From Flavobacteriales bacterium (GTDB lineage Bacteria > Bacteroidota > Bacteroidia > Flavobacteriales_F > PHOS-HE28), in contig JABWBQ010000006.1 in NCBI GenBank assembly GCA_013360395.1, forward strand, positions 9,637 through 73,636: a stretch of 64,000 bases of DNA, in the 5' to 3' direction. The position numbers and the translations under genes are program-made. Positions 7,071-57,560 of the stretch are shown piece after piece. The notes under the pieces are model-generated. The model was given only the letters and a program-made list of their open reading frames with translations. It was not told the origin of the DNA and did no database searches. Within the stretch, counting starts at the first letter, position 1; each line of letters starts with the position of its first letter.

Positions 7071-7190
7071 GGCCACCGAAGAGCGGGGTGGTTCGCGCCG
7101 TGCATACGCGATCCGGCCTCCAAGGTTCCCGCCCTGAACGGTGAAGGGCCGGGAAGCTCCCGGCCCTTCACCACGATGCCGCTCCTCCGG

Positions 7191-10100
7191 TCAACGCACC
7201 AACGTCACATGCCCCACGCTCTCCCGTTCCGCCCCCAGGGTGCCGTGGACGTCCTCGATGAACCGGTATTTCAGCTTCCACACGTACACGCCGTCCTGCA
7301 CGTCCGTGCCGTTGCGCTTCCCATCCCAGGCCACCTCGGCGTCCTGGCCCACGAAGATCTGCTCACCCCAGCGGTCGAAGACCCGCATCTCCATGGTCGC
7401 GATGTTGTACCCGTTGGGCATGAACAGGTCGTTCACCCCGTCGCCATCGGGCGTGAAGCTGTTCGGCACCCAGCACTGTGGCGGGCAGAACTCCACCACT
7501 TCGATGGAATCGGTGATGGTGCAGTTCAGCGGGGTGGTGATCTCCACGATGTACCAGCCGTAAGCGTTCACCTCGATGGTCTGCGTCTCCTCGTCGGTGT
7601 TCCACAGATAGGTGCAGCCGGGGTTCCCCGCATCCAGCAGCGTCTTCTTCGGCCAGTGGTCCAGGCAGAGCACTTGCTCCTCTTCGGTGATGTAGTTCGG
7701 CAGGGGGTTGAACACCACCGCCACCGAATCGCGTGTGGTGCAGTAGCCGTTGAACACCTCGGCCCAGACGTCCTGCGTGGTGGTGACGAAGGTGGTCTGT
7801 GCGGTGGACCCGGTGCTCCACACATGGGATTGACCAGGGTTCCCGGCGTCCAGGTGCATGGTGTCCGTGTCGCACAAGGCCGTGTCCGGCCCCAGGTCCA
7901 CCACCGGGAAGGGGATGATGTCGATCACGGCATCCGCCGAATCCACGCACCAAGTGGGCGTGGTCACCACCACCGAGTAGGTCCCGCTCACACTGTCCAC
8001 TTGGATCACCTGCGTGGTCTCCCCCGTGCTCCACAGGTGGCTGCTGCCCGGGTTGCCCGCATCGAGCGGGATCGTTTCGCTGATGCACACGGCGGTGTCG
8101 CTGAGGACGATCACGGGCAGCGGGTCGAACACCACGTCGATGCTGTCGCTGTTCACACAGTTGTTCCCGTCGGTCACCTCCACCTGGTAATTGTCGTCCG
8201 TATTCACGGTGATGGTCTGGGTGGTGGCCCCGGTGTTCCACAGGTACTGGCTTCCGGGGTTGCCGGCGTCCATGGTCCAGTTCTGGCCGATGCACAACGA
8301 GGTGTCCGGACCAAGGGTGACCACCGGCAGGGGGTCCACCGTCACGTTCGTGGTGAAGGTGGCCTGGCAGCCGAGCGTGTCCGTGATGGTCACGGTGTAG
8401 GCCCCGGCCGTCGAGACCGTGATGGTCTGGGTGGTGGCGTTGGTGCTCCAGTCGTACGTGCTTCCCGGGTAGCCCGCATCGATCACCATGCTCTCGCCAG
8501 CGCACAACGATGAGTCGGCGATGAAGGTGAGGTCGTCGAAGGATACCGTGATGTTCACGGTGTCGCGGGCCGAACAGCCCAGGGCATCCTGCACCACCAC
8601 GATGTATTGCGCGGTGGAGTCGAAGGTGATCACCGGGTTGGCGGTGTTGGCACCTGTCAACTGGTTGGTCGGTGTCCAGCTGATGACGGCGCCCGGCACG
8701 TTGTGCTGCACGTCGAGCACGAAGCCCACCGGGTCGCAGAGCGCGGTGTCCGCCGTGGCCGTCACCACGTAGGCCGTGCTCACCGTGATCTCGATGTCCT
8801 CGGTGAGCACGCAGCCGCTGATGGTGTCGGTGACGGCCAGCACGTAGGTGGTGGTGGTGAGCGGCGTGGCCGTGGGGTCCTGCAGCGTGGCGTCGTCCAG
8901 GGACCCGGCCGGCGTCCAAGCGTACACCAGGTTGGTGGTGTTGCCGTTGATGGTGGCGTCCAGCAGCGTGCTCTCACCCTGGCACAGGTCGTCGTCCAGG
9001 GTGGTGACGGTGAGCCCCAGCAATTGGTTCACCGTGATCGTCACACTGTCGGTGGCGCTGCAGCCCTGGCCGGTGGTCACCGTCACGAAGTACTCCGTGG
9101 TGGTGGCCGGTGTGGCGATGGGCGATTGTACGAAGGTGGCCGAAAGGGTGCCGTTGTTGGGCGTCCACGTCCAGGTGTGGTTGGTGCCGGAGCTCGGAAC
9201 GGCGTTGAGCTGGATGCCCCCCAGGTCGCAGATGGCCGTGTCCGGCGTCATGGCGATGCTGAAGGGCGCGCCCACCTCGATGTACACCGAATCCTGATAG
9301 CTGCACTGCGTGCCGGTGAGCGTGCTCTGGACATGGTACCAGCCCGTGGTCGTCGGGTAGGCCATCGGGTTCGGGATGTTGGCGGCGCTCAAGGTGGCGG
9401 CGGGCGACCAGTTGATGGTGAGCCCGGTGGTGCCCTGGGCCCCGATGGCCACGTTGTCCAGGCTCCAGTTGTCGTTGCCCGGGCCGCTGCTGTTCAGCTG
9501 GCGCCAACGGAACAGCGTGGCGGCGGTCTGTGCCGCCGGTGGGATCGGATAGGTCAACGTGGTGAAGTTGGGGTACAGGTATTCCCACAGGGTGGCCATC
9601 ACCGTCCAGCTGCCGCCGCCGTTGGTGGAATACTCCAGCACCACGTCCTCGCCCGGGTCCGCATCGTCGCACGGCGGGGCCGCCGCCCCGATCTTGATGG
9701 CGAAGCTCACGCTGCCCCCGCTCGCCACGTTCATGGCGGCCGTGGTGGCCTGCCGCGGGTTCACACCGTCGAAGTACAGCGCATCGCCGAACACCGATCC
9801 GCAGGCATTGCTGATGCTGCCGCCCTGCACCGCGTTCCACATGGAGGTGAGCACCATGTCCAGGGGGTCCTCGGCGATGATCTGGTGCACCTGCAGGTCC
9901 AGTTGCGAGGAATCACCCTGGCACAACGCATCCACGGCCGTGCTGGCCTCATAGAGCAGGATGTCCCCCTGGATCACATCGATGTACACGCTGTCCAGGC
10001 TCACCGCACAACCGTTCAGGGTGCTCACGCTCACGTAGAACCAGCCGCTCTGGGTGGGCGTGGCCACGGGGTTCTGCAACGAGCCGTCGTTCAGCTGGGC

Positions 10101-11795: not shown

Positions 11796-11935
11796 GATCC
11801 GTCGGTTCGTTCGGGCCACAAGGTCGGCCGGTGCTGAAAGGTATTGCAGGTTGCGCAAACCGGTCCAGCGGCCGGTGGCGGACCCACCTCATGACGCAGG
11901 TCGGGGCCGGGACGTTGCCAGCCCATCGCACATCA

Positions 11936-13501
11936 TCAGGGCAGGGTCCAGGTGATCTCCAGGTCCCAGCCAAGGCGCACCTGCACCGGCTCCGGATGTG
12001 TGAGCACCACCTCGGGCAGCAGGCCCTCGCGCCAGCGCCCGGGGTCCCAGCGCCCGTTGGCGTTGGCGTCGCGCACCGCTCGGATGCTGTACGTCCCGGG
12101 GGACAACCCTCCCCACAGCACGGTCCGCGTACCGCCCTGCAGCACCGCCCGTCGCACCGCCCGGCCCTGGCCGTCCTGCAACAGGGCGATCAGGCTTCCG
12201 CCGGGGCCGTCGATGGTGAGCTTCAGGCTGCCCACCGTCCCCGGGTCGAAGGCCCCGAGCGTCACCGTGGTGCTGTCGTTCCAGGCGCCGAACACATCGT
12301 GTACCGCCTTGGGTCTCAGCAGGATGGGGCCTCGGTCCCCACCTTGGTGCCGCACCCACAACAACCGTCGGTCCGTCGTGTCCCGGTCCACCGCGAACCG
12401 CACGCTGTCCGCACCGGGGCCGATGGCCACCACCCGTTCCGCATCCACCCGGTCGATGGGCCGGGAGGACCGCAGGGGCACGCCGACCGGCGTGGGCGCA
12501 CCGGCGCGCAGCACCAGGTGGAAGGGCGGACGCAGCGGACGCCGGTAGGTCACCGTGTCCGCCGCGGCGCTGTCCGCCTGCACGATCACCCGCACGCCGT
12601 GCAGCAGGGTGGTGTCCGTAGGCCAGGCCAGCACCGTATCGCGGTCGGAGCCCCACTCCAACAGCCACGCCGGCCGCGGGCCGTCCGCCGGGGTGCGCAC
12701 CGCGAGGCTGTCCACAGGCTTGCTGAAGACCAGCTGCAGCGCGCCTTCCGGCAGCACCCGGTCGTCCATCACCTGCGGTCGGGGGCCCGGTTCGCGGTAA
12801 AGCTCCAACGTGTGCCGGATCGTGTCGCCGGGGAGTGCCACCTCTGCCGGGTCGAAGGCGATCTCCTCCCCGGGCAGGTCGTAGCGCAGGTTGCCGTTCA
12901 GGTCGCGCAGGGCGCGCAGGTTGTAGCGACCGCCGGCCAGGTAGCGCAGCCTGAAGCGGCCTTCGGCATCGGTGCGTGCGATGTACCGCGGCCGCCCGGC
13001 GGTGAACGCCGCGGTGTCGCCGGCCTCGTACAGCAGCACGGCCACGTCCCGCTCCACCGCGCCGGTGTATGCATGGCGCACCGTGCCCGCCACCTCCAGG
13101 CTGTCCACCGCATCGCCTGTGGCCACCACATGCACCAGGTCTTTCGCGGCGTTGCCTTCGGTGAGGTCCACCACGGCCTGGCCCAGGTTGATCACATAGG
13201 TGGTGCCCGCCAGCAGCGGCCCCGGCAGGTCGATCCGCACTTCACGCGGACCGGTGCGGGTCACTTCCAAGGGCGTCTCCAACGGCGGGGAGACCACCAC
13301 GTTCTCGCGCACCTTGCGCAGGTCGATCCGTTCGTCGAACCGCAGGATGAGGGCCCCGCCGGCAAAGCCCGTGGTGCCGCTCGGCGGTTCGGCGGACACC
13401 AATTGTGGCGGGGTCTCGTCCTTGGGGCCGCCGACCGGTTCGCGCACCTGGGCGCAGGCCGAGAGCGCGAGCAACAGAACGGTCGCCGCGTACCGGCTCA
13501 T
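11936..13501 (-). CDS. Ig-like domain-containing lipoprotein (SbsA/Big-type Ig domain plus carboxypeptidase-regulatory-like domains)
   Basis: Residue 185 of track ORF 11936..14053 is M of MSRYAATVLLLALSACAQ (lipoprotein signal, lipobox LSAC), start 13501. The upstream 184 aa are Arg/Gly-rich junk. Followed by TPPQLVSAEPPSGTTGF..., an Ig-like N-terminal domain. The ATGA overlaps the stop of the upstream GAF gene. Confidence 0.7.
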   Translation of the reverse strand: MSRYAATVLLLALSACAQVREPVGGPKDETPPQLVSAEPPSGTTGFAGGALILRFDERIDLRKVRENVVVSPPLETPLEVTRTGPREVRIDLPGPLLAGTTYVINLGQAVVDLTEGNAAKDLVHVVATGDAVDSLEVAGTVRHAYTGAVERDVAVLLYEAGDTAAFTAGRPRYIARTDAEGRFRLRYLAGGRYNLRALRDLNGNLRYDLPGEEIAFDPAEVALPGDTIRHTLELYREPGPRPQVMDDRVLPEGALQLVFSKPVDSLAVRTPADGPRPAWLLEWGSDRDTVLAWPTDTTLLHGVRVIVQADSAAADTVTYRRPLRPPFHLVLRAGAPTPVGVPLRSSRPIDRVDAERVVAIGPGADSVRFAVDRDTTDRRLLWVRHQGGDRGPILLRPKAVHDVFGAWNDSTTVTLGAFDPGTVGSLKLTIDGPGGSLIALLQDGQGRAVRRAVLQGGTRTVLWGGLSPGTYSIRAVRDANANGRWDPGRWREGLLPEVVLTHPEPVQVRLGWDLEITWTLP

Positions 13502-25896: not shown

Positions 25897-26007
25897 CGGG
25901 GGACGGGATGGGTGGTTCGACGAAGCGCTATGACGAATGTCATCAACCCCCTATTTTTGATCCTACCTGCGAGGAAAAGGAAACGAACCAAAACCCGAAC
26001 CGGAACC

Positions 26008-28821
26008 ATGGTCCATCGTTACGCTTCGGCGGCAGCGCTGCTGCTGTCCGCCGCCGGGCTCGTTGCCCAGCCTGTGTTCACCAACCAGTCGGCCATCCTG
26101 CCCCATAACGCCAACAGCGGCGGCTGCATGGCCGTGGTGGACATGGACTTCGACGGGCTGGACGACATCGTGCAGCTCCACATGAGCAAGCACGTGTACA
26201 TCCTCTACCAGAACCCCGACCACTCCTTCACCACCTACGATTACGGGACGGTGGACGGCAGCAACCAGTGGGGCTGGGCCATCGCCGACATGGACCGCAG
26301 CGGGCACAAGGACATCATGAGCGGGGTGTCCGTGACGCGCTACCTGCGCATCACCTCGCGTGGCGTAGCGCAGTTGGTGAACCTCAACGGGCCCACCATC
26401 TTCCACCAGAACGTGAGCATCGCCGACATGAACGGCGATGGCTGGGCCGACCTGTACGCGTGCAATGACGTGGGTCCGAGCAACATCTGGATCAACGACG
26501 GCAGCGGCAACCTGCTCTACGACGGCAACTTCATCGATTGGTCCACGAACCCCGGCTCGGACATGAGCGGCAACTACGGCAGCGTGTTCACCGACTTCGA
26601 CGACGACGGGGACATCGACCTGCACATCAGCCATTGCCGCCAGGGTGTGAACAACCCCAACGACCCGCGTCGTTGGGACCGCCTGTTCGTGAACGACGGC
26701 AACAACAACTACACCGACATGGCCCAGGCGTACGGCCTGCAGAACCGTGAGCAGGTGTGGACCACCGATTTCGGCGACTACGACAACGACGGCGACCTCG
26801 ATGTGTTCAGCACCACGCACAGTACCTCGCTGATGCTGTTCGAGAACGACGGCAACAACAACTATGTGGACGTCACGGCCGGCAGCGGTCTGGAGAATTA
26901 CACCGGCTTCTTCCTGCAGGGCCTGTTCCGCGACCTGGACAACGACGGCTTCCTGGACATCATGACGGGTTCGGCCGACCACTACTTCAAGGGCAATGGC
27001 GACGGCACCTTCGCGGAGGTCACCGGTCTGTTCCCCGCCGGCAAGAACATGCTGAGCTTCGCTTACGGCGACCTCAACGAGGACGGCTTCACCGACCTGT
27101 ACGCCAGCTACGGGAACGCCTATGTGGACGGGGATCCCAGCTTCCCGGACCGGCTGTACCTCAACACGCCCAACGGCAACCACTGGCTGGACGTGGACCT
27201 CAAAGGCGTGACGAGCAACAAGGAGGCCATCGGTGCCAAGGTCAAGATCTGGGGGCCCTGGGGCATCCAGGTGCGCGAGGTGCGCAGCGGCGAGAGCTAC
27301 GGCGTGGTGAACAGCACCACCCTGCACTTCGGCCTGGGGGCCCACACCACAGTGGACAGCCTGGTGGTGCAGTGGCCCAGCGGTGAGGTGGACAGCTACA
27401 CGAACATCGATGCCGATCAGGGCATCACCCTGCTGGAAGGCACCTGCATCGCCCCCGTGGCGGAGATCACCGCCGGCGGCGCCCTGGTGGTGTGCACCGG
27501 CGGGGCTCCGCTCACCCTCACGGCCAACCCGGGCTTCCAATACACTTGGAACACCGCCGCCACCACCCAGAGCATCGACGTCACCGCCGCCGGCAGCTAC
27601 ACGGTGACCATCGACGACGGCACCGGCTGCTGGAGCCAGGCCACCGTGACCGTGATCGCCGATCCCGACGAGACCCCCACGGTGTCCGTGGTCGGGGAGA
27701 CCACCTTCTGCGAAGGCGGGTCCGTGGAGCTCACCAGCTCGTCGGCCAACGGCTACCTGTGGAGCAACGGGGCCACCACGCAGACCGTGCAAGCCACGGC
27801 GGATGGGCCCATCACCGTCACCATCCCCGGCCTGTGCGGCAACTTCACCTCCGCGCCCGTGGAGCTCGAAGTGATCGACACCCCCGATGCGCCGGTCACC
27901 ACCGGTGCCACCCTCATGGGCCCGGGCACGGCCGACATCCAGGCCACCGGTGCCAACATCACCTGGTACGACCTGCCCGCGGGCGGCACCGCCCTGGGCA
28001 CGGGCAACACCTGGACCACGCCCTTCGTGAACAGCACCACCAGCTTCTGGGCCGAGGACCTCAACAGCTTCGGCGGCGGGGTGGTGAGCGGCGGGCGCGT
28101 GGACAACACCGCCACCGGCCAGTACCACCAGAACGATGCCTTCTACCTGTTGTTCGATGCCTATGAGCGCTTCACGATCAACTCCGTGAAGGTGTACGCC
28201 AACGGGGCCGGCACGCGCACCATCGCCCTGGTGGACATGAGCGACAACAGCACCGTGGCCAGCGTCTCGCCGAACATCGCCTCCGGCACGCAGGTGGTGA
28301 CCCTGGGCCTGGAGGTGCCCGGCCCCGGCAACTACGCCCTGCGCTGCGTGGGCACGCCCAACCTGTGGCGCGATGGCCAGGGCAGCAACCCGCAATACCC
28401 CTACGCGCTCGGCTCCCTGGGCAGCATCACCGGCACCAACATCGGTGGGCAGAACGCGCTGGCGTACTACTACTTCTTCTACGACTGGCAGGTGGAGGCC
28501 TTCGGTGTGGATTGCCCGGGCCCGCGCACCGAGACCGTGGTGACCGTGACCTCCGTGGGCCTGCCCGAGCAGGGCACCAACGGCTTCCTGCACCTGATGC
28601 CCAACCCGGCCGATGAAGCGGTGACCGTGACCTTCCCCACCACGGGCGGCACCGTTGCCGTGGAGGTGACCGACCTGAGCGGACGGGTGGTGCGTCGCAT
28701 CACCGGAGCCGGTGCCACCGGTAAGGTCCAGCTGGAGATCGGCGACCTGGCGCGCGGACAATATCTCGTGCGCCTGAACAGCGCCGAAGCCCAGCACGTG
28801 GCGCGCCTCACCGTGCGCTGA
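26008..28821 (+). CDS. FG-GAP/ASPIC-UnbV repeat protein with Ig-like repeats and T9SS type A C-terminal sorting domain
   Basis: M126 of track ORF 25633..28821 gives MVHRYASAAALLLSAAGLVAQ (signal peptide). Multiple FG-GAP/VCBS-like Ca-binding repeats (DxDxDGxxD), an UnbV-like segment (HWLDVDLKG...GAKVKIW), SprB/PKD-like repeats, and C-terminus HLMPNPADEAVTVTFP...GQYLVRLNSAEAQHVARLTVR (type A CTD). Confidence 0.8.
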   Translation: MVHRYASAAALLLSAAGLVAQPVFTNQSAILPHNANSGGCMAVVDMDFDGLDDIVQLHMSKHVYILYQNPDHSFTTYDYGTVDGSNQWGWAIADMDRSGHKDIMSGVSVTRYLRITSRGVAQLVNLNGPTIFHQNVSIADMNGDGWADLYACNDVGPSNIWINDGSGNLLYDGNFIDWSTNPGSDMSGNYGSVFTDFDDDGDIDLHISHCRQGVNNPNDPRRWDRLFVNDGNNNYTDMAQAYGLQNREQVWTTDFGDYDNDGDLDVFSTTHSTSLMLFENDGNNNYVDVTAGSGLENYTGFFLQGLFRDLDNDGFLDIMTGSADHYFKGNGDGTFAEVTGLFPAGKNMLSFAYGDLNEDGFTDLYASYGNAYVDGDPSFPDRLYLNTPNGNHWLDVDLKGVTSNKEAIGAKVKIWGPWGIQVREVRSGESYGVVNSTTLHFGLGAHTTVDSLVVQWPSGEVDSYTNIDADQGITLLEGTCIAPVAEITAGGALVVCTGGAPLTLTANPGFQYTWNTAATTQSIDVTAAGSYTVTIDDGTGCWSQATVTVIADPDETPTVSVVGETTFCEGGSVELTSSSANGYLWSNGATTQTVQATADGPITVTIPGLCGNFTSAPVELEVIDTPDAPVTTGATLMGPGTADIQATGANITWYDLPAGGTALGTGNTWTTPFVNSTTSFWAEDLNSFGGGVVSGGRVDNTATGQYHQNDAFYLLFDAYERFTINSVKVYANGAGTRTIALVDMSDNSTVASVSPNIASGTQVVTLGLEVPGPGNYALRCVGTPNLWRDGQGSNPQYPYALGSLGSITGTNIGGQNALAYYYFFYDWQVEAFGVDCPGPRTETVVTVTSVGLPEQGTNGFLHLMPNPADEAVTVTFPTTGGTVAVEVTDLSGRVVRRITGAGATGKVQLEIGDLARGQYLVRLNSAEAQHVARLTVR

Positions 28822-28846
28822 CCGCGGATACGACCATCCGAGCCTC

Positions 28847-28881
28847 GGAGCCCCCGGCATCGCCGGGGGCTCCCGCTTTTC
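28847..28881 (+). terminator. intrinsic terminator after T9SS FG-GAP gene
   Basis: ggagcccccgg-catcg-ccgggggctcc is a perfect 11-bp stem followed by cgcttttcc (U-tract), 26 nt after the stop. Confidence 0.6.
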
Positions 28882-28976
28882 CGGGCCCGGCCATACGGCA
28901 TACCTTGGACGCATGGGGTGACGGTCGTACTTGCACCGCCGGACCGCCCGCCCGACCTTGTGTGCCGAACACCACC

Positions 28977-31491: not shown

Positions 31492-32514
31492 ATGATCAAC
31501 GCCAGGGAGGCGATGGTGGAGGAACTGGTGCTCCACCGGGTGGGCACCGACGGCTCGCCCACCGTGCTCACCGACGTGAGCGCCGTGCTGCAGGGGCCCG
31601 AGGAACAGGAGTTCCTGCGGCGCCTCTTCCTGCGGCCCTTCGCCACGGCGACGGCCACGCACACTTTCCGCAGCGGCGAGGGCCGCGACGGGAACGCCCT
31701 GCAGGCCCTGTGCACCAAGGCGATGAAAAGCCGCGACCTGGTGGGCGTGTCGCGCGCCATCGCCAAGCTGTTGGTCGACACCGCCGCCGAGCACGAGGTG
31801 CGTGCCGGGGACCTCTTCATCGTCCGCTTCCATGCCGTGGAGCTGGCCGGTGCCGTGCACGACGCGGTGGGCATCCTCAAGTTCGACGACAAGGAGGTGT
31901 TCCTGGAGAGCAAGCTCAGCGGCAGCAACATCGGCATGCGCCTGCGGCGCGGGCTCGGAGGACGGCGCCCCGACCAGGCCCTGCTGGTGCTCTTCACCCC
32001 GGAGGAGCCCACCGTGCTGACGATCGACGACGACCCGCGGAGCGGCTTCTGGCAGCAGGCCTTCGCCGGGCTGCGTGCCAGGCAGGACCACGTGAACAGC
32101 ACCAACAACCTGCTGGAGATGACGCGCTCCTTCATCACCGAGCAGCTGCCCCAGGACTACGAGATCCCCAAGGCCGACCAGATCGACCTGCTGAACCGCT
32201 CGGTGCAGTACTTCAAGGAGAACACCGAGTTCGACCGCGGCAGCTTCGCACGCGAGGTCTTCCAGAACGACGAGGTGATCGGCTCTTTCGAACGCTTCGG
32301 CGACCGGTTCAAGGAGGAACGCGCCGTGGAACTGGAGGACCGTTTCGCCATCAGCCCCGATGCCGTGAAGAAGCAGGCCCGGGTGTTCAAGAGCGTGCTG
32401 AAGCTGGACAAGAACTTCCACATCTACATCCACGGCGACCGCAACAAGATCGAGCGTGGGGTGGACGAGCAGGGCCGGAAGTTCTACAAGATCTACTACG
32501 AGCAGGAGCTGTAG
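31492..32514 (+). CDS. yejK: nucleoid-associated protein YejK/NdpA family
   Basis: 340 aa with ...LHRVG..., conserved acidic regions and C-terminal FHIYIHGDRNKIERGVDEQGRKFYKIY, characteristic of the 37-kDa nucleoid-associated protein family. Confidence 0.8.
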   Translation: MINAREAMVEELVLHRVGTDGSPTVLTDVSAVLQGPEEQEFLRRLFLRPFATATATHTFRSGEGRDGNALQALCTKAMKSRDLVGVSRAIAKLLVDTAAEHEVRAGDLFIVRFHAVELAGAVHDAVGILKFDDKEVFLESKLSGSNIGMRLRRGLGGRRPDQALLVLFTPEEPTVLTIDDDPRSGFWQQAFAGLRARQDHVNSTNNLLEMTRSFITEQLPQDYEIPKADQIDLLNRSVQYFKENTEFDRGSFAREVFQNDEVIGSFERFGDRFKEERAVELEDRFAISPDAVKKQARVFKSVLKLDKNFHIYIHGDRNKIERGVDEQGRKFYKIYYEQEL

Positions 32515-32674
32515 AGGCTATCTCAAGAAACCCTTTGGGCTGCGCGAGGAACTTTTGCGCCCATGCTTCGTTGTGAAAAATCTTTCAGAGCTACCGGCCA
32601 TTCTCGGTTCTCACGCCTCGCCTGGACGCGAAATACTTGTCGCTCGCTTCCAAGATCATTTTTGAGACAGCCTC
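32514..32674 (+). repeat. dispersed ~160-bp element with 13-bp terminal inverted repeats (copy A); MITE-like or structured RNA
   Basis: Begins gaggctatctcaa and ends ttgagacagcctc; about 80% identical over its length to 46225..46387 in the same orientation. Contains the conserved core cacgcctcgcctggacgcgaa. Starts at the last base of the yejK stop codon. Confidence 0.7.
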
Positions 32675-32783
32675 TGGCCGGCCCGTACCGCCCGCCGCCG
32701 TGCGCGATCCCGTGACACCCGTCCGGTCGCGCGCTCTTGCCCTTTGCCCGGCCTGTGCGCATCTTGGTCCCAGCACCCCGCCC

Positions 32784-35700
32784 ATGCGCCTGTTCCCGCT
32801 GATCGCCGGAGCGCTCCTCGCACCCGAACTGGGGGCACAGCTGCTCTTTGACCGCATCACGGCGGCCGATGGCCTTCCGAACGAGGAGGTCCATGCGCTG
32901 TTCGAGGACCGCGACGGCTTCATCTGGGCCGGCACGGCCGATGGCCTGGCACGTCTGGAGGGCACCAGGGTCCGCGTCTTCCACCACGACCACAACGATA
33001 CCGCCAGCCTGGCCCACGACCAGGTGCGGGGCATCGCGCAGGACGCCGCAGGCACCCTCTGGTTCGCCACCATGGATGGGCTGTCGCGCTTCGATGCGCA
33101 GCGCGCCACCTTCACCAACCTGCGCATCACCGCCGCCGGAACGGATGCGCGGCAGGCCAATCGCATGCTGCAGGTGCTGCCCCTGGGCGACACGCTGCTC
33201 TGGGTGGTCACCGAAGCCGGCCTCTACCGCCACGACATCCGCAGCGCCCGCTTCCGCAGCGTGCAAGGCCGCCCGGCCGGAGAGGGCCCCGCGGGCATGG
33301 TGAACGCCGCCGGTGCCGTATTCTGGGATGCGCCGCACCGAACCCTGTGGGTCGGCACGCACAAGGGTCTCGCCTCCTGGGATGCGAACACCGGGCGCTG
33401 GACCGACCATCGGAACAGCACGGAAGAGCCCTGGGCGGGGACCTCCTCCACCAACGTGCCCGTGGTCCATGGCGATTCGCTCTGGTTCCTGCGCAACGCC
33501 CCCTACACGCTCTGTGCGTATGACCTGCGGCGCAGGCGGATGCACGTACAGCCCGACCTCGAGCAGGAGCCGAACCGTTTCACCCTGCGCGCCCAGGGCA
33601 TCGGCCCGGACGGTACGCACTGGCTCTGTACGTGGACCCACCGTGTCTTCCGCCGCCGGCCACACGGCAACTGGCACGAAGTGCGATCCATGGTGGACCG
33701 CCCCGGCGCCATGCCGTCCACCCGGGTCAGTGCCTTGTTGTTCGTGCGTAAGGGCGAGACCTGGTTCGCCACTGCCCAAGGCATCGCCGCCCTGCGCCCG
33801 ACGGCCGACAAGATCGTTCCCCTGTACGAGGACCCCGACGGCCGCATGGTCTCGGCCCTGGGACGGCTGGGTAAGGACACCCTGTTGGTGGGCAGCGCCG
33901 GTGGGGGGGTAAGCCTGGTGGACCTGCGAACGGGAGAACGCACCGCCCCCCTGCGTCGCGTGTCCGCCGCCTTGCCGGAGGAGCTGGAGCTGGCCAACTT
34001 CGTGCGTGCCTTCGGCACCGCATATCGGGGCATGCCGCTGGTGTGCACCTCCCGGGGCCTCGCCCTGCTCGATGTGCGTGGCGGTGCGCTCAGGCCCATG
34101 CAGGCGCTCGATGCGGCGTTCCCGCAGGCGGGGGAAAGCACCTTCACTTTCGCCGAACGCGCGGATGGGGCCTTCTGGTTCGGCACCTGGTCGCGGGGTC
34201 TTTGGCGGCTGGATGAAGGCAGCGGCGACGGTGTGTGCATTGACACCGTGGCCGGACCGTACGGTGCGCTGCCCGGCCGCATGATGCTGAGCTGGCTCAC
34301 CGACCGTTCCGGCGGAGCTTGGGTGGGCATGAACGACGGCGGTGGGCTGGCGCACGAGGTGAACGGTCGGTTCCAGGTGCTGCGCGAGCCAGGGGGGGGC
34401 CATGTGGGCGGTGTGGTGCGTTCCATCGCCGAAGGCCCCGACGGAAGGATCTGGCTCGGCACCCACGAACGGGGGATCCTGGTGTACGACCGCGCGACCG
34501 GCGGCACCCGCTACTACACCCGCCGCGACGGCCTGCCCGCCACGCGCATCCACGCGCTCCTGTTCACCCGCGACGGCACCTTGTGGGCGGCCACCGCCGG
34601 CGGCTTCGCCTTCATGGAGCCCGGCACGGCGACCTTCCGAACACCCGACCTCCCCGCCGGGCTGCAGGAGGGGGGGGCCTACACGTTGCAGGAACTGGCC
34701 GACGGCCGCCTCGCGCTCACCATCGGCGACCGGGTGTTGTTGTATGACCCGGCCATCGGGCCTGCTTCCGTGCCTCCGCATCCGGTGTTCACCGGCCACC
34801 GCATCAACGACCTGCTGGTGCGCGGCGCCCCCGGGCCCCTGGAACTGACGTACGATCGCAAGGCCCTGAGCCTGGAGCTCGGGACGGTGGGCCATCACTT
34901 CGGGCCACCGCCACAGTTCCGCTATCGCCTGGCGGACAAGGATACCGGCTGGTACGAGCTGGGCCGCGTTGCACGCATCGACCTGTTCGATCTGGCACCG
35001 GACCGCTACCATATCCAGGTGCAGGCCAGTGCGGACGGTGTGCACTGGAGCACCGACGTGGCGGCGGTGGAGGTCGCCGTGCGGCCGCCCTTCCACGCCA
35101 CCTGGTGGTTCAGGTCCCTGATGGCGCTGCTGGCCGTCCTGGCGGCGGTGGCCGGCTCCCGGGTCCATCTGGCCATCCGGCTGCGCCGCCAGCGCGAGGC
35201 GTTCGAGCGGGAGCAGGCCGTGCTGGCCGAACGCATGCGGATCGCCAGCGACATGCACGACGACCTCGGGGCCGGTCTCAGCGCCCTGAAACTGCGCAGC
35301 GAAATGGCCCTGCGCATGGAGAGGGACCCGTCGAAACGCGACCAGCTCGGCGCGCTGGCCCGGACCGCGGGGGAGCTCATCGGCAGCATGCGCCAGATCA
35401 TCTGGACCATGAACGCCGACCAGGGGAGCGTGGCCGACCTGTTCGCCTACACCGGCAGCTATGCCCGCAAGTACTGCGACGAAAATCGGGTGGCGCTGAC
35501 GGTGGTGGCGGACACGGACCCGCCCGCCGTGTCGCTCAGCGCCGAGCAGCGCCGCAACGTCTTCCTGGTGGTGAAGGAAGCCCTGCACAACATCGTGAAG
35601 CATGCCGCCGCCCACCGGGCCGAGCTCCGGATGCGCTGGGACAGCGGCGCGATGGATGTGCTCATCTGCGACGATGGGCCCGGATGGCCCGCGAACCCCG

Positions 35701-35891
35701 AGGCCACCGAAGGCAACGGGCTGCGCAACATGCGGCGGCGCATCGCCGCGCTTGGCGGCACCATCGACCCGGTCCGTGACGGGAGCCCGCTTCCCGGGGC
35801 CTGCCTGCACTTCCGGGTGCCGGTGGCCATGCCCCCTAACCTTCGTTCCATTGACCGGTCCGTGGCGGCCGATGACCTTCGTGGCGCATGA
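32784..35891 (+). CDS. sensor histidine kinase with periplasmic two-component-regulator beta-propeller (Reg_prop/Y_Y_Y), TM segment, HisKA_3 and HATPase_c
   Basis: M50 of the track ORF gives MRLFPLIAGALLAPELGAQ (signal peptide). Repeated F.D..G.LW.GT..GL motifs (Reg_prop), a TM at WWFRSLMALLAVLAAVAG, an H-box (MRIASDMHDDLGAGLSAL) and an N/G-box (GNGLRNMRRRIAALGG). 4-nt overlap with the response regulator. Confidence 0.85.
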   Translation: MRLFPLIAGALLAPELGAQLLFDRITAADGLPNEEVHALFEDRDGFIWAGTADGLARLEGTRVRVFHHDHNDTASLAHDQVRGIAQDAAGTLWFATMDGLSRFDAQRATFTNLRITAAGTDARQANRMLQVLPLGDTLLWVVTEAGLYRHDIRSARFRSVQGRPAGEGPAGMVNAAGAVFWDAPHRTLWVGTHKGLASWDANTGRWTDHRNSTEEPWAGTSSTNVPVVHGDSLWFLRNAPYTLCAYDLRRRRMHVQPDLEQEPNRFTLRAQGIGPDGTHWLCTWTHRVFRRRPHGNWHEVRSMVDRPGAMPSTRVSALLFVRKGETWFATAQGIAALRPTADKIVPLYEDPDGRMVSALGRLGKDTLLVGSAGGGVSLVDLRTGERTAPLRRVSAALPEELELANFVRAFGTAYRGMPLVCTSRGLALLDVRGGALRPMQALDAAFPQAGESTFTFAERADGAFWFGTWSRGLWRLDEGSGDGVCIDTVAGPYGALPGRMMLSWLTDRSGGAWVGMNDGGGLAHEVNGRFQVLREPGGGHVGGVVRSIAEGPDGRIWLGTHERGILVYDRATGGTRYYTRRDGLPATRIHALLFTRDGTLWAATAGGFAFMEPGTATFRTPDLPAGLQEGGAYTLQELADGRLALTIGDRVLLYDPAIGPASVPPHPVFTGHRINDLLVRGAPGPLELTYDRKALSLELGTVGHHFGPPPQFRYRLADKDTGWYELGRVARIDLFDLAPDRYHIQVQASADGVHWSTDVAAVEVAVRPPFHATWWFRSLMALLAVLAAVAGSRVHLAIRLRRQREAFEREQAVLAERMRIASDMHDDLGAGLSALKLRSEMALRMERDPSKRDQLGALARTAGELIGSMRQIIWTMNADQGSVADLFAYTGSYARKYCDENRVALTVVADTDPPAVSLSAEQRRNVFLVVKEALHNIVKHAAAHRAELRMRWDSGAMDVLICDDGPGWPANPEATEGNGLRNMRRRIAALGGTIDPVRDGSPLPGACLHFRVPVAMPPNLRSIDRSVAADDLRGA

Positions 35892-43790: not shown

Positions 43791-44266
43791 GCGGGGGCGG
43801 CGGAGCGACGGGCATGCGCACGGCCGGTGCAGCAGGGCACTTGGATGTGTCGAGGCCGACGACAGGCGAAGTGATCCGGCGGTGTTCCACCGCGCATTGC
43901 ACGATCGATCCGTGGTGCGCCACAGCGCGCTGGAAGAGCTCCTTACATGTCGCATCGATGCACAAGGTGTGTCACATGCGGTCGCATCATCGCGCGTTGG
44001 ATCGCCAGTCGAAGTGATGTGATGATCGTGTCGGAACACGGATGCGCGAGCGATGAGGATGAAAGGCACGATGTGCGGAATGCCGCTTGCACCAAGGGTT
44101 GCGTGAGGTCGATGCGCAGCGCATCATGCACATCGCATCGTGTGCATGCGCGTGGTCGGGGATCGGTCCGCATCGTTATCAACAATATTTGGTTGGAACA
44201 TCTTTGCAACCTTTTGATGCGCACAAGCGTTCGAGGTGATACGTTTGTCTCAAACCCTTAACCGTC

Positions 44267-44383
44267 ATGGCAAAGAAGGCAGCTAAGAAGGCCACGAAGA
44301 AGGCCGCGAAGAAGGCGACCAAGAAGGCCGCCCCGAAGAAGGCCGCGAAGAAGGCCACGAAGAAGGCCGCGAAGAAGAAGTGA
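44267..44383 (+). CDS. histone H1-like lysine/alanine-rich microprotein (38 aa)
   Basis: ATG GCA AAG AAG ... TGA encodes MAKKAAKKATKKAAKKATKKAAPKKAAKKATKKAAKKK. It is preceded by a lower-GC stretch (44161..44266) and followed by two perfect hairpins. Seen only as the antisense FFAAFF run in track ORF 44179..44682. Bacteroidota carry similar KKAAKK histone-H1-like genes. Confidence 0.55.
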   Translation: MAKKAAKKATKKAAKKATKKAAPKKAAKKATKKAAKKK

Positions 44384-44404
44384 GGAGCTGTGCTCCGAAC
44401 GTTC

Positions 44405-44524: not shown

Positions 44525-46210
44525 TCAGGCGAAGGCGGTGCGCAGTTCGTCCGCGAAGTAGCGCAGGGCGTTCCGCACGCCGAGGGGCAGGCCGCCGCCC
44601 AGGGCGCACAGCGAACCGATCTCCATGGTCTCGATGAGGTCCTCGAAGAGCGCGCGGTCCATCGGGCGGCCTGCACGCACACCCTGGATGAGCTCCCGGC
44701 CCCGCACCGAACCGATGCGGCAGGGGAAGCACTTGCCGCAGCTCTCGGCTTCGGTGAACGCGAAGAGGTGCTCCAGGTATTCGATCATGGGAAAGCCTGC
44801 CGGGATGCTCAGCACGCTCGCATGCCCGAGCAGGAAGCCTTCCTTCTGGAAGCTCTCGAAATCGATCGAGAGGGCGTTGACCTTCTCCAGCGGCACGATG
44901 CCGCCGAGCGGACCGCCGATGTGCAGCGCCTTGGTGGGGCGGGCAAAGCCCTGACCGAGCTCGTCGATCACACGGGCGAGCGGCGTGCCGCACTCCACCT
45001 CGTACAGGCCGGGGCGGTTGAAGCCGCTGTCCAGGCACACGAGCTTGCTGCCGTTGCTCTTCTCACTGCCGAGGCGTGCGAAGGCCGCCCCGCCATGTTC
45101 CACCACCCACGGTACGCACGCCAGCGTCTCCACGTTGTTCACCACCGTGGGCCGGTTGAACAGGCCCTGCTGGGCGGGGTAGGGGGGGCGTGTGCGCACC
45201 TCGCCACGCTTGCCCTCGATGCTGTTGAGCAGCGCGGTCTCCTCGCCGCACACATAGGCACCCGCCGCCTTGATCACCTTGAAGCGCCAGTTGACCCCGC
45301 TGCCCTTGATGTCCGTGCCGATCCAGCCGTTCGCCTCCAGTTCGTGCACCGCGTGGCGCACCGCGGCGATGGCCTCGGGGTACTCCGCCCGGATGTACAG
45401 CACGCCGGTGTCCGCCCCCACGCAACGACCGGCGATCATCATGCCCAGGAGCACGCGGTGCGGACGCTGTTCGAGCAGGTACCGGTCGCTGAAGGCCGCC
45501 GGATCGCCTTCGTCGGCGTTGCACACGATGTACTTGCGCGGGGTGCCGTTGCCGGTGACATCCTCCGCGTTGCGGCACGCCTCGAGCTTGAGGCCCATGG
45601 GGAAGCCCGCACCGCCGCGCCCGCGGATGGTGGCCACCTTGATCTCCTGGAGCACGTCGGCAGGATCGCTCTTCAGCACCCGCTCCCACAGTGCATAGAA
45701 CGCGGGCAGGGGCGGCATGGGCGCCGTGAGGATGGGGTGCTCCATGGTGGTCCCCACATGGTGCGCGCCACCGACGGGCACGGAGGCGGCGCCCGGAGCC
45801 TGCACCAGCTCGTCCAGCCGGTCGATGGCGTCCCCGCTGTAGTTGCGGCCACCCACGTGGAAGGCCCTGTTCTCATGGCAGCGGCCCAGGCAGCACATGT
45901 GCCCGATCTCCTCCTCCTTGAAGTGGCGGCGCAGTTCGTGATGCACCTGTTCCTGCGTGCCCGCCACCAAGCAGGCGCTGCCGTTGCACACGTAGGCCTT
46001 GAGGTCCTTGTTGCCCGGCTTCAGGAAGTCGTAGAAAGTGCTGGTACCGTAAGTGACCGCCTCGCCCACGAGGTAGTCGTCGGCGATGGCCGTGAGCGCC
46101 TCGGTGGACGGTGTGCCCGTCCCCTCCGCCGCCTGCTGCAACCGCTCCCACAGGGCGTCGTCCAGCTCCTTGCCATCCCGGCCGGAGAGGGAGGTGATGT
46201 TCTTGGACAT
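44525..46210 (-). CDS. fdsB: NAD-dependent formate dehydrogenase beta subunit, fused NuoE-like/NuoF-like (FdsGB type)
   Basis: N-terminal thioredoxin-like 2Fe-2S (CNGSACLVAG...CCLGRCHENRAF), then NuoF-like FMN/NAD binding (GRGGAGFPMGLK, CNADEGDPAAFSDR) and a 4Fe-4S site (ESCGKCFPCRIGS). Confidence 0.9.
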   Translation of the reverse strand: MSKNITSLSGRDGKELDDALWERLQQAAEGTGTPSTEALTAIADDYLVGEAVTYGTSTFYDFLKPGNKDLKAYVCNGSACLVAGTQEQVHHELRRHFKEEEIGHMCCLGRCHENRAFHVGGRNYSGDAIDRLDELVQAPGAASVPVGGAHHVGTTMEHPILTAPMPPLPAFYALWERVLKSDPADVLQEIKVATIRGRGGAGFPMGLKLEACRNAEDVTGNGTPRKYIVCNADEGDPAAFSDRYLLEQRPHRVLLGMMIAGRCVGADTGVLYIRAEYPEAIAAVRHAVHELEANGWIGTDIKGSGVNWRFKVIKAAGAYVCGEETALLNSIEGKRGEVRTRPPYPAQQGLFNRPTVVNNVETLACVPWVVEHGGAAFARLGSEKSNGSKLVCLDSGFNRPGLYEVECGTPLARVIDELGQGFARPTKALHIGGPLGGIVPLEKVNALSIDFESFQKEGFLLGHASVLSIPAGFPMIEYLEHLFAFTEAESCGKCFPCRIGSVRGRELIQGVRAGRPMDRALFEDLIETMEIGSLCALGGGLPLGVRNALRYFADELRTAFA

Positions 46211-46224
46211 GCGCTCCGAAGGTA

Positions 46225-46387
46225 GAGGCTATCTCAATAAGAACCTTTGAGCTGCGCGAGGGTCTTTGGCGCCCATACTTGGTTGTGAAAAGCCTTACAG
46301 CGCTACCGACCATGCTCGGCCCTCACGCCTCGCCTGGACGCGAAGTACCGCTCGCTCGTTTGAAAAAAGCATTGTGGAGATAGCCTC
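46225..46387 (+). repeat. dispersed ~160-bp element with 13-bp terminal inverted repeats (copy B)
   Basis: Begins gaggctatctcaa and ends ttgagatagcctc; homologous to 32514..32674; it is responsible for the similar 69-aa artefact ORFs 32456..32665 and 46303..46512. Confidence 0.7.
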
Positions 46388-46483
46388 AAGCGGACCTGGC
46401 GGCTCAGTGGACATGTAGACCCCCGGCCCCTTGCCCGGCATCCGGCCATTCGCCAACTTCGATGTATCAAACCCCGAACGATC

Positions 46484-47461
46484 ATGAAACTCCTGCTCAA
46501 GATCCTCGGCATCCTCCTCGTGCTGGTCGTGCTGGCCGGCCTGGGCGGCTATCTCTACCTGACCCGGGCCCTTCCCGATGTGGACGCCCCTGCCGACCTG
46601 AAGGTGGAGCTGACACCGGACCGCATCGAACGCGGACGTTACCTGGCCAACAGCGTGTGCGTGTGCATGGACTGCCATGCGCAACGGGACTGGAGCCTCT
46701 TCGCCGGCCCTCCCAAACCCGGCACCCTCGGTGCGGGCGGCGACAAGTTCGACCGCACCATGCAGTTCCCCGGCGAGTTCCATGCGCGCAACATCACCCC
46801 CTTCGGGCTGAAGGACTGGACCGATGGCGAGCTGTACCGCGCCATCACCAGCGGTGTGAGCCGGGACGGTCATCCCTTCTTCCCGGTTATGCCCTATCCG
46901 AACTACAACCGCATGGCCACCGAGGACGTGTACGCCATCATCGCCTACCTGCGCTCCCTGGACCCCATCACCACCGCGCCTTTTCCGGAGAGCGTCATCG
47001 ATTTCCCGGTGAACCTCATCATGCGCACGGTACCGGAACCCGCCCGGCCGATGGAACGCCCCGCCCCGGGCGATGCGCAGTACGGCGCGTATGTGATCAA
47101 TGCCGCGGCGTGCATCGAATGCCACACGAACACCGTGCAGGGCGAGCGCATCGGGGAGCCCTATGCGGGCGGCTTCGCGTTCAACTTCCCCGACGGTTCG
47201 GTGCTCCGTTCGGCCAACATCACCCCGCACTCCACGGACGGCATCGGGTCCTGGGACAAGGCGACCTTCATCCGGAAGTTCAAGCAATACACGGACAGCA
47301 CCTACGTGCCGGAGCGGGTGGCACCGGGTGCGTTCCAGACCGTGATGCCCTGGTCGATGTACGCCACCATGACCGAACAGGACCTGGGCGCGATCTACGA
47401 CTACCTCGCCGCGCTCAAGCCGGTGGCCGGCAAGGTGGAGAAGTGGACCCCGGCGCCATAG
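46484..47461 (+). CDS. diheme c-type cytochrome (membrane-anchored)
   Basis: MKLLLKILGILLVLVVLAGLGGYLYL N-terminal TM/signal; two CXXCH motifs (CMDCH and CIECH). Confidence 0.8.
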   Translation: MKLLLKILGILLVLVVLAGLGGYLYLTRALPDVDAPADLKVELTPDRIERGRYLANSVCVCMDCHAQRDWSLFAGPPKPGTLGAGGDKFDRTMQFPGEFHARNITPFGLKDWTDGELYRAITSGVSRDGHPFFPVMPYPNYNRMATEDVYAIIAYLRSLDPITTAPFPESVIDFPVNLIMRTVPEPARPMERPAPGDAQYGAYVINAAACIECHTNTVQGERIGEPYAGGFAFNFPDGSVLRSANITPHSTDGIGSWDKATFIRKFKQYTDSTYVPERVAPGAFQTVMPWSMYATMTEQDLGAIYDYLAALKPVAGKVEKWTPAP

Positions 47462-57317: not shown

Positions 57318-57560
57318 GAATGACCGGGGCCGACAGGCGGCTGCGCGGGGCCGCCCATGGCGGACGATCAATGGTGCATCGATCCGCGGACGTGGGCCCT
57401 TTCAGGGGGCTGCGAAGTTACCGGCAACGGCCGGAATGGCAGGGGCGAACCCCGTGCGGTCGCCGCCCGTTGCGGTGTGACGTGCGGCCGACCTGGACCG
57501 GGCCGCAACCTGATGCGGCGCGGACGGAAGGTCCGACCGGACCGGTGCTGCGGCGAAGCG

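Follow-up and report, generated by a model that had tools for sequence, protein, structure and literature searches.

What is the non-coding sequence of about 160 bp that occurs twice, next to unrelated genes, in the genome of a Flavobacteriales bacterium? In the 64,000-nucleotide stretch of DNA analysed here (the window), an original prediction had located two copies, at 32514-32674 and 46225-46387, and had read them as a MITE-like non-autonomous transposon or, alternatively, as a structured small RNA or REP-like regulatory element whose ends pair as a closing stem. Both copies lie at these coordinates and on one strand, and they comprise the following features.

32514..32674, plus strand: copy A of the probable MITE, 161 bp, non-coding, a foldback by sequence comparison and folding
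32514..32529, plus strand: left terminal inverted repeat of copy A, GAGGCTATCTCAAGAA, matching the left end of the insertion sequence ISMsp1 at 13/16 positions
32612..32632, plus strand: conserved core of copy A, CACGCCTCGCCTGGACGCGAA, forming the 3' arm of the inner foldback helices
32659..32674, minus strand: right terminal inverted repeat of copy A, reading GAGGCTGTCTCAAAAA inward, 15/16 to the ISMsp1 left end
46225..46387, plus strand: copy B of the probable MITE, 163 bp, accounting for 165-168 bp of extra spacer with respect to relatives
46225..46240, plus strand: left terminal inverted repeat of copy B, GAGGCTATCTCAATAA, from the sequence
46324..46344, plus strand: conserved core of copy B, the same 21 nt as in copy A
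46372..46387, minus strand: right terminal inverted repeat of copy B, reading GAGGCTATCTCCACAA inward, decayed, from the sequence

Pairwise alignment of copies A and B yields 132 identities over 163 positions (81%), in agreement with the end-to-end identity of about 80% initially put forward, and both copies start with GAGGCTATCTCAA. The predicted common core is likewise present as 21 nt identical in the two copies, and within the window it is found in these copies only, with 0 occurrences expected; the 13-mer end, allowing up to two mismatches, occurs five times in the window versus 0.32 expected. The description of the termini has to be amended. Both copies had been said to end in TTGAGA(C/T)AGCCTC and to carry perfect 13-bp terminal inverted repeats, but copy A ends in TTGAGACAGCCTC and copy B in TGGAGATAGCCTC, so that neither terminal repeat is perfect and each copy matches at 12/13 positions. 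The open reading frames overlapping the elements are only read-through extensions of neighbouring frames, and the elements have a G+C content of 52-55%, versus 67.6% for the window.

The two copies are surrounded by the following genes and short target sequences.

31492..32514, plus strand: gene for a yejK-like nucleoid-associated protein (PF04245), with its stop codon interrupted and regenerated by copy A
32512..32513, plus strand: TA target, left copy of the duplication and at the same time the TA of the yejK TAG stop codon, from empty sites in relatives
32675..32676, plus strand: TG to the right of copy A, from comparison with the flanks of other family copies
32781..35891, plus strand: histidine-kinase gene downstream of copy A, at a distance of 106 bp, with 32781 as its most likely start
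44525..46210, minus strand: gene for an fdsB-like NAD-dependent formate dehydrogenase subunit, start codon at 46208-46210
46223..46224, plus strand: TA target between copy B and the fdsB-like gene, 12 nt ahead of the start codon of that gene
46388..46389, plus strand: AA on the cytochrome c side of copy B (TT when read towards fdsB), from empty-site comparison
46484..47461, plus strand: cytochrome c gene, divergent from fdsB, its start 96 bp from the end of copy B

Copy A begins, as predicted, on the last base of the yejK stop codon (the G of TAG), and copy B lies between the fdsB-like start codon, 14 bp away, and the cytochrome c gene. Copy A is missing from relatives whose YejK is 83-89% identical; in relatives without the element the gene ends in ctgTAG or ttgTAG at the same position, and homology to locus L018, with a YejK 89% identical, breaks off exactly at 32514. 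Similarly, the spacer between fdsB and the cytochrome c gene spans 273 bp in the source genome, versus 105-108 bp in relatives with an FdsB-like protein 88-89% identical, and on four related contigs the empty site has just one TA, in the sequence ...CTG(C/T)-TA-CCTTCGGAGCGCATG. Both window copies hence show presence/absence at orthologous sites, with one TA at each junction. The TG at 32675..32676 can be interpreted as the decayed right copy of the TA duplication, while the AA at 46388..46389 fits a decayed second TA and a 1-bp duplication equally well. With mismatched ends and a decayed second TA in both copies, the window lends no support to continued mobility of either one.

A search for homologous copies beyond the window found at least 11 in high-GC genomes of related Flavobacteriales, at unrelated positions. 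The aligned set comprises 13 copies at 12 different loci, drawn from the window, the metagenome WBZY01 (at least seven copies, three of them on one 280-kb contig) and four Flavobacteriales MAGs, which together carry five copies. Every copy in the set is flanked by TA on at least one side (13/13), and five present TA on both (L006, L008b, L066, L068 and L141), one of which, L008b, is nested within another copy with flanks TA/TA. The target-site duplication that a transposon would be expected to leave is thus apparent in these five copies, and decayed on its second side in those of the window; four family copies show TG at the end where no stop codon protects the flank. The target often lies within (C/T/G)TAG. 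Seven of the 13 copies have inserted exactly into a TAG stop codon and regenerate it, and 7/13 lie directly at gene ends. Copy A had no blastn match among PLSDB plasmids, and the exact 21-nt core had none in a collection of one genome per GTDB species; the subfamily copies that do occur in those genomes have a core that differs from it. A literal search of the literature for the end sequences returned no paper.

The termini connect this family to a known group of insertion sequences. The family end, extended to 16 nt and with sharp boundaries, has the consensus GAGGCT(A/G)TCTCAA(A/N)AA, also given as GAGGCTGTCTCAAAAG. The latter is also the left end of ISMsp1, a 1741-bp insertion sequence with right end GAGGCCGTCTCAAAAG and a coding sequence annotated at NCBI as 'IS1182-like element ISMsp1 family transposase'. 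Compared with the left end of ISMsp1, the four window ends agree at 12-15 of 16 positions, with the right end of copy A at the upper bound (15/16) and the right end of copy B at the lower (12/16). A 1678-bp element that begins with the family 16-mer, and matches it at 13/16 positions on its opposite end, carries a degraded DUF772 + DDE_Tnp_1_6 transposase, and six further full-length copies of 1723-1741 bp have ends matching the consensus at 14/16 positions, with left end GAGGGTGTCTCAAAAG. Full-length insertion sequences with matching ends, which the original prediction had proposed to look for, therefore exist as ISMsp1 and seven others. The carriers of matching ends combine DUF772, DDE_Tnp_1 and DDE_Tnp_1_6 domains, and all eight full-length elements come from other organisms (Cytophagales, an IMG/VR contig) rather than from the source genome. 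Similar ends are seen in ISBf3, in IS1182 and in a Bernardetia element, and a first G followed by a CAAAA run is a family-wide feature of IS1182-family ends.

The same ends also delimit at least 118 elements of approximately 150-175 bp, mostly from Bacteroidota, with interiors that are unrelated in sequence and self-complementary (median folding z = -4.0). The flanks of this wider superfamily follow an aaaa...tttt pattern, with additional 3-5-bp repeats in the loops of flanking palindromes, and some MITEs of GC-rich hosts are located in the loop of a flanking palindrome. Full-length ISMsp1-like copies are also flanked by aaaa...tttt, and not by TA/TA. The A...T flank signature is hence common to the wider MITE superfamily and to full-length IS1182-family copies, and the location in palindrome loops recalls the hairpin targeting reported for IS1272 (PMC4923244, PMC5678879).

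On this evidence, copies A and B probably represent an old and inactive MITE with IS1182-type ends that was moved in trans. The elements are shorter than about 300 bp, non-coding, bounded by terminal repeats and dispersed; they show presence/absence with target duplication, and an autonomous element shares their ends. The first of the two predicted readings, that of a MITE-like non-autonomous transposon, is consequently borne out by dispersed copies, empty sites, TA duplication and matching full-length insertion sequences. In the proposed mechanism, the terminal repeats of about 16 bp would serve as binding and cleavage sites for a DDE transposase supplied in trans, for which an ISMsp1-type IS1182-family insertion sequence with ends GAGGCTGTCTCAAAAG would be the likeliest source; in the source genome, mobilisation would have depended on an IS1182-family enzyme, and both copies appear to be inactive at present. 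Within the high-GC Flavobacteriales lineage, insertion would take place at a TA dinucleotide, which is duplicated. With a G as first base and a C as last base, an element that lands on the TA of a TAG stop codon would restore this codon irrespective of the gene strand. The encoded protein would hence remain unchanged, and this would explain the survival of stop-codon insertions.

The identity of the transposase is the aspect of this model with the most serious competitor. A TA duplication of 2 bp is what IS630 and the IS427 group of IS5 typically produce, and 2-bp direct repeats have been reported for the latter (PMC3281130). In the IS1182 family, IS1272 generates no target duplication (PMC4923244, PMC5678879) and ISPse1 generates one of 4 bp. 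A TA duplication, which has not been reported for this family, is made by the subfamily found in the window. Movement by another TA-duplicating family, be it the IS427 group of IS5 or IS630/Tc1-mariner, would account directly for the duplicated TA and its frequent location within (C/T/G)TAG. Moreover, the IS427 group is related to IS1182 and its ends likewise begin with GAG; a TA-targeting MITE, RUP, is assigned to IS630-Spn1 (PMC2229807), and a close relative (L167) carries a gene of the IS630 type (DDE_3). This explanation is nonetheless unlikely, given that the MITE ends agree with those of the IS1182 family at up to 15/16 positions and belong to a continuum of at least 118 same-ended elements with the flank pattern of full-length ISMsp1-like copies. 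The element in L167, the sole IS630-type element examined, was rejected as a partner, with ends (TTATTGATCCGGCAT) unrelated to those of the MITE.

Searches by tblastn and profile HMM detected no IS1182-family transposase in the 64-kb window or in the approximately 1.3 Mb of fetched flanks of MITE copies, matches being confined to already known insertion sequences. Pairing of relaxed end matches 500-3000 bp apart in the fetched loci gave only chance pairs (L126 and L145 were checked) and no full-length partner. The best 120 matches to the ISMsp1 transposase protein were all close ISMsp1 relatives, mostly on contigs of 1.7-2 kb, with no Flavobacteriales partner among them. The atypical TA duplication, the different flanks of ISMsp1-like copies and the lack of a transposase in the regions searched run counter to an IS1182 assignment.

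Inverted repeats flanking about 160 bp could also delimit an inverton, that is, a promoter-bearing segment flipped by a site-specific recombinase. Invertible DNA switches are common in Bacteroidota, and the position of copy B between divergent genes and of copy A upstream of a kinase gene would suit such a switch. Orientation, however, appears to be fixed: three independent assemblies of copy B (L172, L173, L174) are oriented as in the window, and two MAGs with the element at one locus (L092 and L109) share its orientation. Public short-read assemblies of the source organism do break inside copy A, but they do so just past the core and not at a repeat boundary. Coupled with the lack of a TAnnTTTG promoter box in copies A and B, and with the correspondence of the repeats to insertion-sequence ends, these results make an inverton scarcely credible. 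A doublet of REP sequences of the REPIN type, mobilised by a RAYT (IS200/IS605-like) enzyme, would in turn be a long extragenic hairpin in many copies, as seen here, and GTAG precedes copies A, B, L011 and L141. Yet GTAG, which is conserved in RAYT-dependent elements, occurs at only 4/13 copies, the others showing TTAG, CTAG or ATAG, no RAYT gene was noticed, and REPINs have neither terminal repeats matching a DDE insertion sequence nor a target duplication, making this origin extremely improbable.

A further reading concerns structure. Because the interior of the element is a long imperfect palindrome, a DNA strand or a transcript would fold into one long hairpin, and both strands of copies A and B fold far better than shuffled sequences (z = -2.9 to -4.1). 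Changes on both sides of a predicted pair occur in 14 of 50 pairs, where shuffles gave 4.4 +/- 1.6 (0/500) and slid controls 1-5; compensatory changes have preserved the hairpin along the entire element. The predicted closing stem is thus supported as a foldback, and the question is whether it reflects an RNA structure or a regulatory hairpin of the REP/ERIC sort, acting as a terminator, small RNA or mRNA stabiliser and repeated on account of its function, or, in a weaker form, a MITE recruited for such a role. The strong folding of both strands, the excess of two-sided changes, the self-complementary interiors throughout the superfamily and the location of 7/13 copies immediately at gene ends are all compatible with a function of this kind. 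Rfam 15, on the other hand, identified only tRNAs at gathering threshold in the window and 18 related loci, and returned no match for either copy even at E <= 10. The strands fold about equally well, so neither is singled out as the RNA strand, and G-U pairs offer no guide in this respect, since the structure was predicted on one strand. Copies occur in either orientation relative to their neighbours and in unrelated contexts, and arm-to-arm exchange within the palindrome could also yield paired changes. Above all, insertion-sequence ends, TA duplication and empty sites require transposition. An RNA or regulatory family is hence very improbable, and the mobile behaviour of the element and the Rfam results speak against the RNA part of the original alternative. 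A plain intrinsic terminator was also considered, given that the ends resemble terminator stems (e.g., in a Bacillus plasmid), and was rejected: neither copy is followed by the T run typical of a terminator.

For an IS1182-type MITE, the closest described counterparts are the 160- and 169-bp MITEs of Methanosarcina acetivorans, partnered with the IS1182-family ISMac2 (Kamoun et al. 2013, PMC3852290). By their description, they resemble the window copies in size, in their multiple copies (14 and 7), in having terminal repeats and in the assignment of an IS1182-family partner by end similarity, and differ from them in their archaeal host, in terminal repeats of 25-26 bp and in a duplication of 4 or 0 bp. 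The suggestion that the element belongs to no described family is therefore tenable for the subfamily, as far as could be found, but not for its kind. Compared with IS1182-family insertion sequences, which it resembles in the terminal 16 bp (15/16 between ISMsp1 and the right end of copy A), the MITE has no transposase gene, one tenth of the length and an unrelated interior, and it duplicates TA. According to a review (PMC2229807), the Correia/NEMIS elements of Neisseria and the RUP of Streptococcus pneumoniae are likewise non-coding, measure about 100-155 bp and have terminal repeats, a TA target, hairpin transcripts, gene-adjacent locations and a partner insertion sequence inferred through end similarity. 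They inhabit other hosts, RUP is tied to a different transposase family through IS630-Spn1, and the passages of the review consulted here make no mention of stop-codon enrichment.

The element is consequently of an ordinary kind, and what takes it beyond routine is its frequent insertion into TAG stop codons and the long hairpin that it has retained. A broader proposal, that it is a stop-codon-seeking foldback MITE kept as a hairpin by selection, with ends defining a pan-Bacteroidota superfamily of hairpin MITEs, is rather doubtful. If it were true, a hairpin of about 160 nt at the start of the 3' untranslated region could serve as a terminator or mRNA-stabilising module, and the superfamily, extending also to Solirubrobacterales, Binatia and Kiritimatiellae, would insert into and replace terminators and palindromes. 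Several questions follow from these data: whether IS1182-type transposases, known for duplication-free hairpin targeting, are also able to duplicate TA, what brings over half of the subfamily exactly into TAG stop codons, and whether a hairpin kept by compensation acts on transcripts.

In practical terms, the 16-nt signature GAGGCTGTCTCAAAAG flags a set of small mobile elements that are very widespread in Bacteroidota MAGs, appear to be uncatalogued and break short-read assemblies, as observed at copy A. The motif CTGTCTC is also present in the Tn5 mosaic end; a sequencing-adapter artefact was discarded, the remainder of the sequence not matching and copies being present in independent assemblies. 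Effects on neighbouring genes are conceivable at both window sites. Copy A would place a hairpin right after yejK, and copy B puts 165 bp between the start codon of the formate dehydrogenase operon and its former upstream region, a displacement through which the regulation of the operon may have changed.

The window carries two copies of the element on the same strand:

32514-32674, + strand: copy A, 161 bp, non-coding
46225-46387, + strand: copy B, 163 bp, non-coding

The original prediction placed both copies correctly, at about 80% identity (132/163 positions, 81%), and described their gene context accurately. The first base of copy A is the G of the TAG stop codon of a yejK-type gene (PF04245), with a histidine-kinase gene (likely start 32781) beginning 106 bp downstream, and copy B is flanked by a cytochrome c gene and a divergent fdsB-like gene. 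Both copies start with GAGGCTATCTCAA and share the core first described (CACGCCTCGCCTGGACGCGAA), which is identical in the two and found nowhere else in the window (chance expectation 0). The 13-bp terminal inverted repeat, previously described as perfect, matches at 12/13 positions in each copy, and copy B ends in TGGAGATAGCCTC, not in the sequence first reported. With up to two mismatches allowed, the terminal 13-mer occurs five times in the window, against 0.32 expected. The G+C content of the elements is 52-55%, versus 67.6% for the window; sigma-70-type promoters, terminator-like T runs and TAnnTTTG boxes are absent from both copies. Neighboring proteins identify the host as an uncultured Flavobacteriales bacterium of high G+C content, and GCA_019187595.1 (JABARF010000004.1) as well as several publicly available short-read assemblies match the window at 99.8-100% identity. 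A single 12-nt gap separates the window from GCA_019187595.1, and may fall within 44261-44389, where eight overlapping 12-nt units encode the lysine/alanine-rich tail (AKKAAKKATKK...) of a small protein encoded immediately downstream of fdsB.

The interpretation of this element as a MITE stands, given its dispersed copies, empty sites, TA duplication and insertion-sequence ends. The search for further copies proposed in the original prediction recovered them: at least seven true copies in metagenome contigs searched with a 19-nt core, every one in assembly WBZY01 (70-87% identity to copy A, on unrelated flanks; three on one 280-kb contig), and five further homologues in four Flavobacteriales MAGs (L066, L068, L092, L109 and L141), retrieved by searching for the two ends at MITE spacing. 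L092 and L109 are one locus shared by two species-level genomes, and a MITE copy can hence outlast speciation. Furthermore, at least 16 assemblies with the identical YejK break off 118 bp past the stop codon, precisely where the shared core finishes, as expected of a repeat in a de Bruijn assembly. An unrelated 161-bp MITE, with terminal repeat TACCATTTCGCAATAGAA and flanked by TTA/TTA, lies at 4113-4271 of the WBZY01 locus L008 (WBZY01000076.1), inside a main-family copy whose right end also holds a nested copy, L008b; this second MITE occurs in neither the window nor any other locus.

Empty sites are available for both window copies. Relatives with 89%, 83% and 73% identical YejK carry no element after the gene, the gene ends in ...TGTAG at the position of the copy A junction in loci L018 and L022, and nucleotide homology between the window and L018 ends at 32514. 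The copy B site is empty in four contigs from relatives (fdsB-like protein 88-89% identical), where a 105-108-bp spacer reads ...CTG(C/T)-TA-CCTTCGGAGCGC-ATG; in the source genome the spacer is 273 bp long and reads ...CGCTT-[163 bp]-TA-CCTTCGGAGCGC-ATG, a comparison that is clean on one side. Since the empty-site contigs carry a single TA at the junction, the copy B target held one TA. Across the subfamily of 13 aligned homologous copies, TA is present on both flanks in five and on at least one flank in all 13, supplying the target-site duplication that the original prediction had proposed to look for; the dinucleotide opposite TA is TG in four copies, and the nested L008b is flanked by TA/TA. 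Taken together, the flank pattern and the empty sites lead us to conclude that the element duplicates TA on insertion. The window copies look like decaying relics, and the second TA of both has presumably been lost by decay, a 1-bp duplication being a possible alternative for copy B. L018 lacks the segment 32515-36600, which comprises the MITE, the histidine kinase and one further gene, and holds in its place MoaA fragments, a GerE-type regulator and additional genes; homology returns with the adenine glycosylase gene, and copy A thus borders a variable region.

Of the 13 copies, seven abut exactly on the TAG stop codon of a gene, with TA as the target and the G as the first base of the element or, for genes on the opposite strand, the complement of its last C:

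Genes with a TAG stop codon abutted by a subfamily copy
Window (copy A): YejK
L011: YchF
L017: PhnA/YjdM
L006: AhpC/TSA-type protein
L012: NlpC/P60
L068: CHU_C protein
L141: TypA/BipA

The C-terminal Pfam domain extends to no more than 14 residues from the protein end in L011, L017, L068 and L141. Stop codons make up five of the approximately 72 non-disrupting TAG sites in the window (rough gene calls), and 7/13 is hence far above expectation (roughly 1e-5 at p = 0.07, by our binomial estimate). Most simply, this reflects a TA(G) target and the survival of protein-sparing insertions, although the MITE may possibly have an active preference for gene ends. At copy B and at L092/L109, a start codon instead lies 14 nt downstream of the element; copy B, 14 bp from the fdsB-like start codon, would have shifted the former upstream region of that operon 165 bp away from this codon.

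Folding, as proposed in the original prediction, gave a single long stem for each copy on either strand (-56 to -66 kcal/mol; z = -2.9 to -4.1), and copy A presumably places this stable hairpin directly after yejK. The consensus of the 13 copies comprises 50 pairs, with 93.7% of all cells paired, and 14 of these pairs show changes on both sides, versus 4.4 +/- 1.6 after shuffling (0/500) and 1-5 in slid controls with partners moved by 1-3 columns. A large share of this signal comes from L008b (70% identical), in which many paired changes preserve the fold. The way the structure was derived biases the G-U count, which, with both strands folding, does not tell RNA from DNA constraint. The hairpin could be maintained by selection on a transcript hairpin or because the transposition mechanism requires it, and the paired changes could also stem from exchange between the two arms.

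The pattern GAGGCTNNCTCAA-N(120-150)-TTGAGNNAGCCTC, run against one genome per species, matched at least 118 loci, versus about 2 expected by chance (our estimate from pattern information alone). These elements (L028-L145, GTDB genome contigs; approximately 150-175 bp) are multi-copy per genome, with examples at L077 5238-5392, L054 5480-5641 and L058 1329-1477. End positions left free in the pattern are likewise conserved, yielding GAGGCTGTCTCAAAAG with sharp boundaries inside and outside, and interiors are alike within a genome and unrelated between genomes. With the 16-nt ends trimmed, the interiors of all 121 superfamily matches remain strongly self-complementary (median z = -4.0; 83% below -2). 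Among the matches listed, hosts are mostly Bacteroidota (Saprospiraceae, Lewinellaceae, Chitinophagaceae, Bacteroidales, Cyclobacteriaceae and Flavobacteriales), including isolates of Algoriphagus, Roseivirga, Ohtaekwangia, Echinicola and Chryseobacterium, and the other hosts listed are Solirubrobacterales, Binatia, Kiritimatiellae and a Ruminococcaceae MAG.

The same 16-mer begins a 1678-bp element in L151, from a viral-contig search, which has a 13/16 match at its other end and encodes a degraded transposase (DUF772 and DDE_Tnp_1_6). This transposase family adjoins the same end on the Microscilla plasmid pSD15, where an intact 1741-bp copy with ends GAGGCTGTCTCAAAAG and GAGGCCGTCTCAAAAG has its CDS annotated as 'IS1182-like element ISMsp1 family transposase'. 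Six more copies of 1723-1741 bp in two genomes end in GAGGGTGTCTCAAAAG and GAGGCCGTCTCAGAAG, related ends occur on ISBf3, IS1182 and a Bernardetia element, and the right end of copy A (GAGGCTGTCTCAAAAA) matches ISMsp1 at 15/16 positions. A full-length element with matching ends, which the original prediction had proposed to look for, is found elsewhere, in ISMsp1; no IS1182-type transposase is present in the window or the fetched flanks. The element is a MITE, most likely of the IS1182, ISMsp1-like type, an already known kind and not a new kind of system; in Methanosarcina, 160-169-bp MITEs with an IS1182-family partner have been described (PMC3852290). What nevertheless merits a short note is that the end is conserved across the superfamily, the foldback is retained and copies tend to sit in stop codons.

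Symmetric flanks, with aaaa before and tttt after the element rather than a direct repeat, accompany the full-length ISMsp1-like copies and the majority of Bacteroidota MITEs. In GC-rich hosts, direct repeats of 3-5 bp (TTA, TAA, TTTA, CAAG, AGGA, TCCA) are observed, several of them in the loop between inverted flanking arms, as in CCCACAG-CAAG-element-CAAG-CTGTGGG. In such palindrome-loop insertions (L037 4042-4198, L100 4748-4900, L045 467-640, L060 4261-4434 and L138 227-387) the 4-nt loop is duplicated, as in GTGGCTG-AGGA-element-AGGA-CAGCCAC. By analogy with IS1272, an IS1182-family member that targets hairpins and terminators without duplication, these cases look like insertions into hairpins or terminators, in agreement with the published targeting of hairpins by IS1272 and of palindromes by some family members (PMC4923244; PMC5678879). 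TA duplication is the sole feature of the window's subfamily that would better fit a transposase from IS630 or IS5/IS427, but the one IS630-type element inspected, in a relative, has ends unrelated to those of the MITE. This insertion sequence (HTH and DDE_3; ends TTATTGATCCGGCAT) lies at about 6150-7265 of L167 (GCA_016715895.1, a close relative), between a cupin gene and a formate dehydrogenase alpha-subunit gene, and is absent from that position in the window's genome.

Short terminator-like hairpins resembling two element ends joined head to head, such as AAAAAAGAGGCTGTTCCCAAAATTAGCTTTTGGGACAGCCTCTTTTT between convergent genes, were also seen (L146 1500-1546, on a Bacillus sp. S3 plasmid; L126 3113-3131; L081 4564-4590; L132 near 930); they may reflect mimicry of terminator stems by IS1182-type ends, or the element may have left some of them behind as footprints. 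Other repeats in the window include a 125-bp direct repeat (92% identical), in which 58301-58425 covers the 3' terminus of a gene on the minus strand (58312-59748) and 57551-57675 is a stray duplicate of that terminus, 750 bp away. Very large genes at 2400-12300 contain several repeat families (88-131 nt; 60-76% identical; spaced by approximately 210, 243 and 414 nt) that look like tandem domain repeats of surface/adhesin-type proteins, and a T9SS-sorted FG-GAP/ASPIC protein is encoded at approximately 26000-28900.
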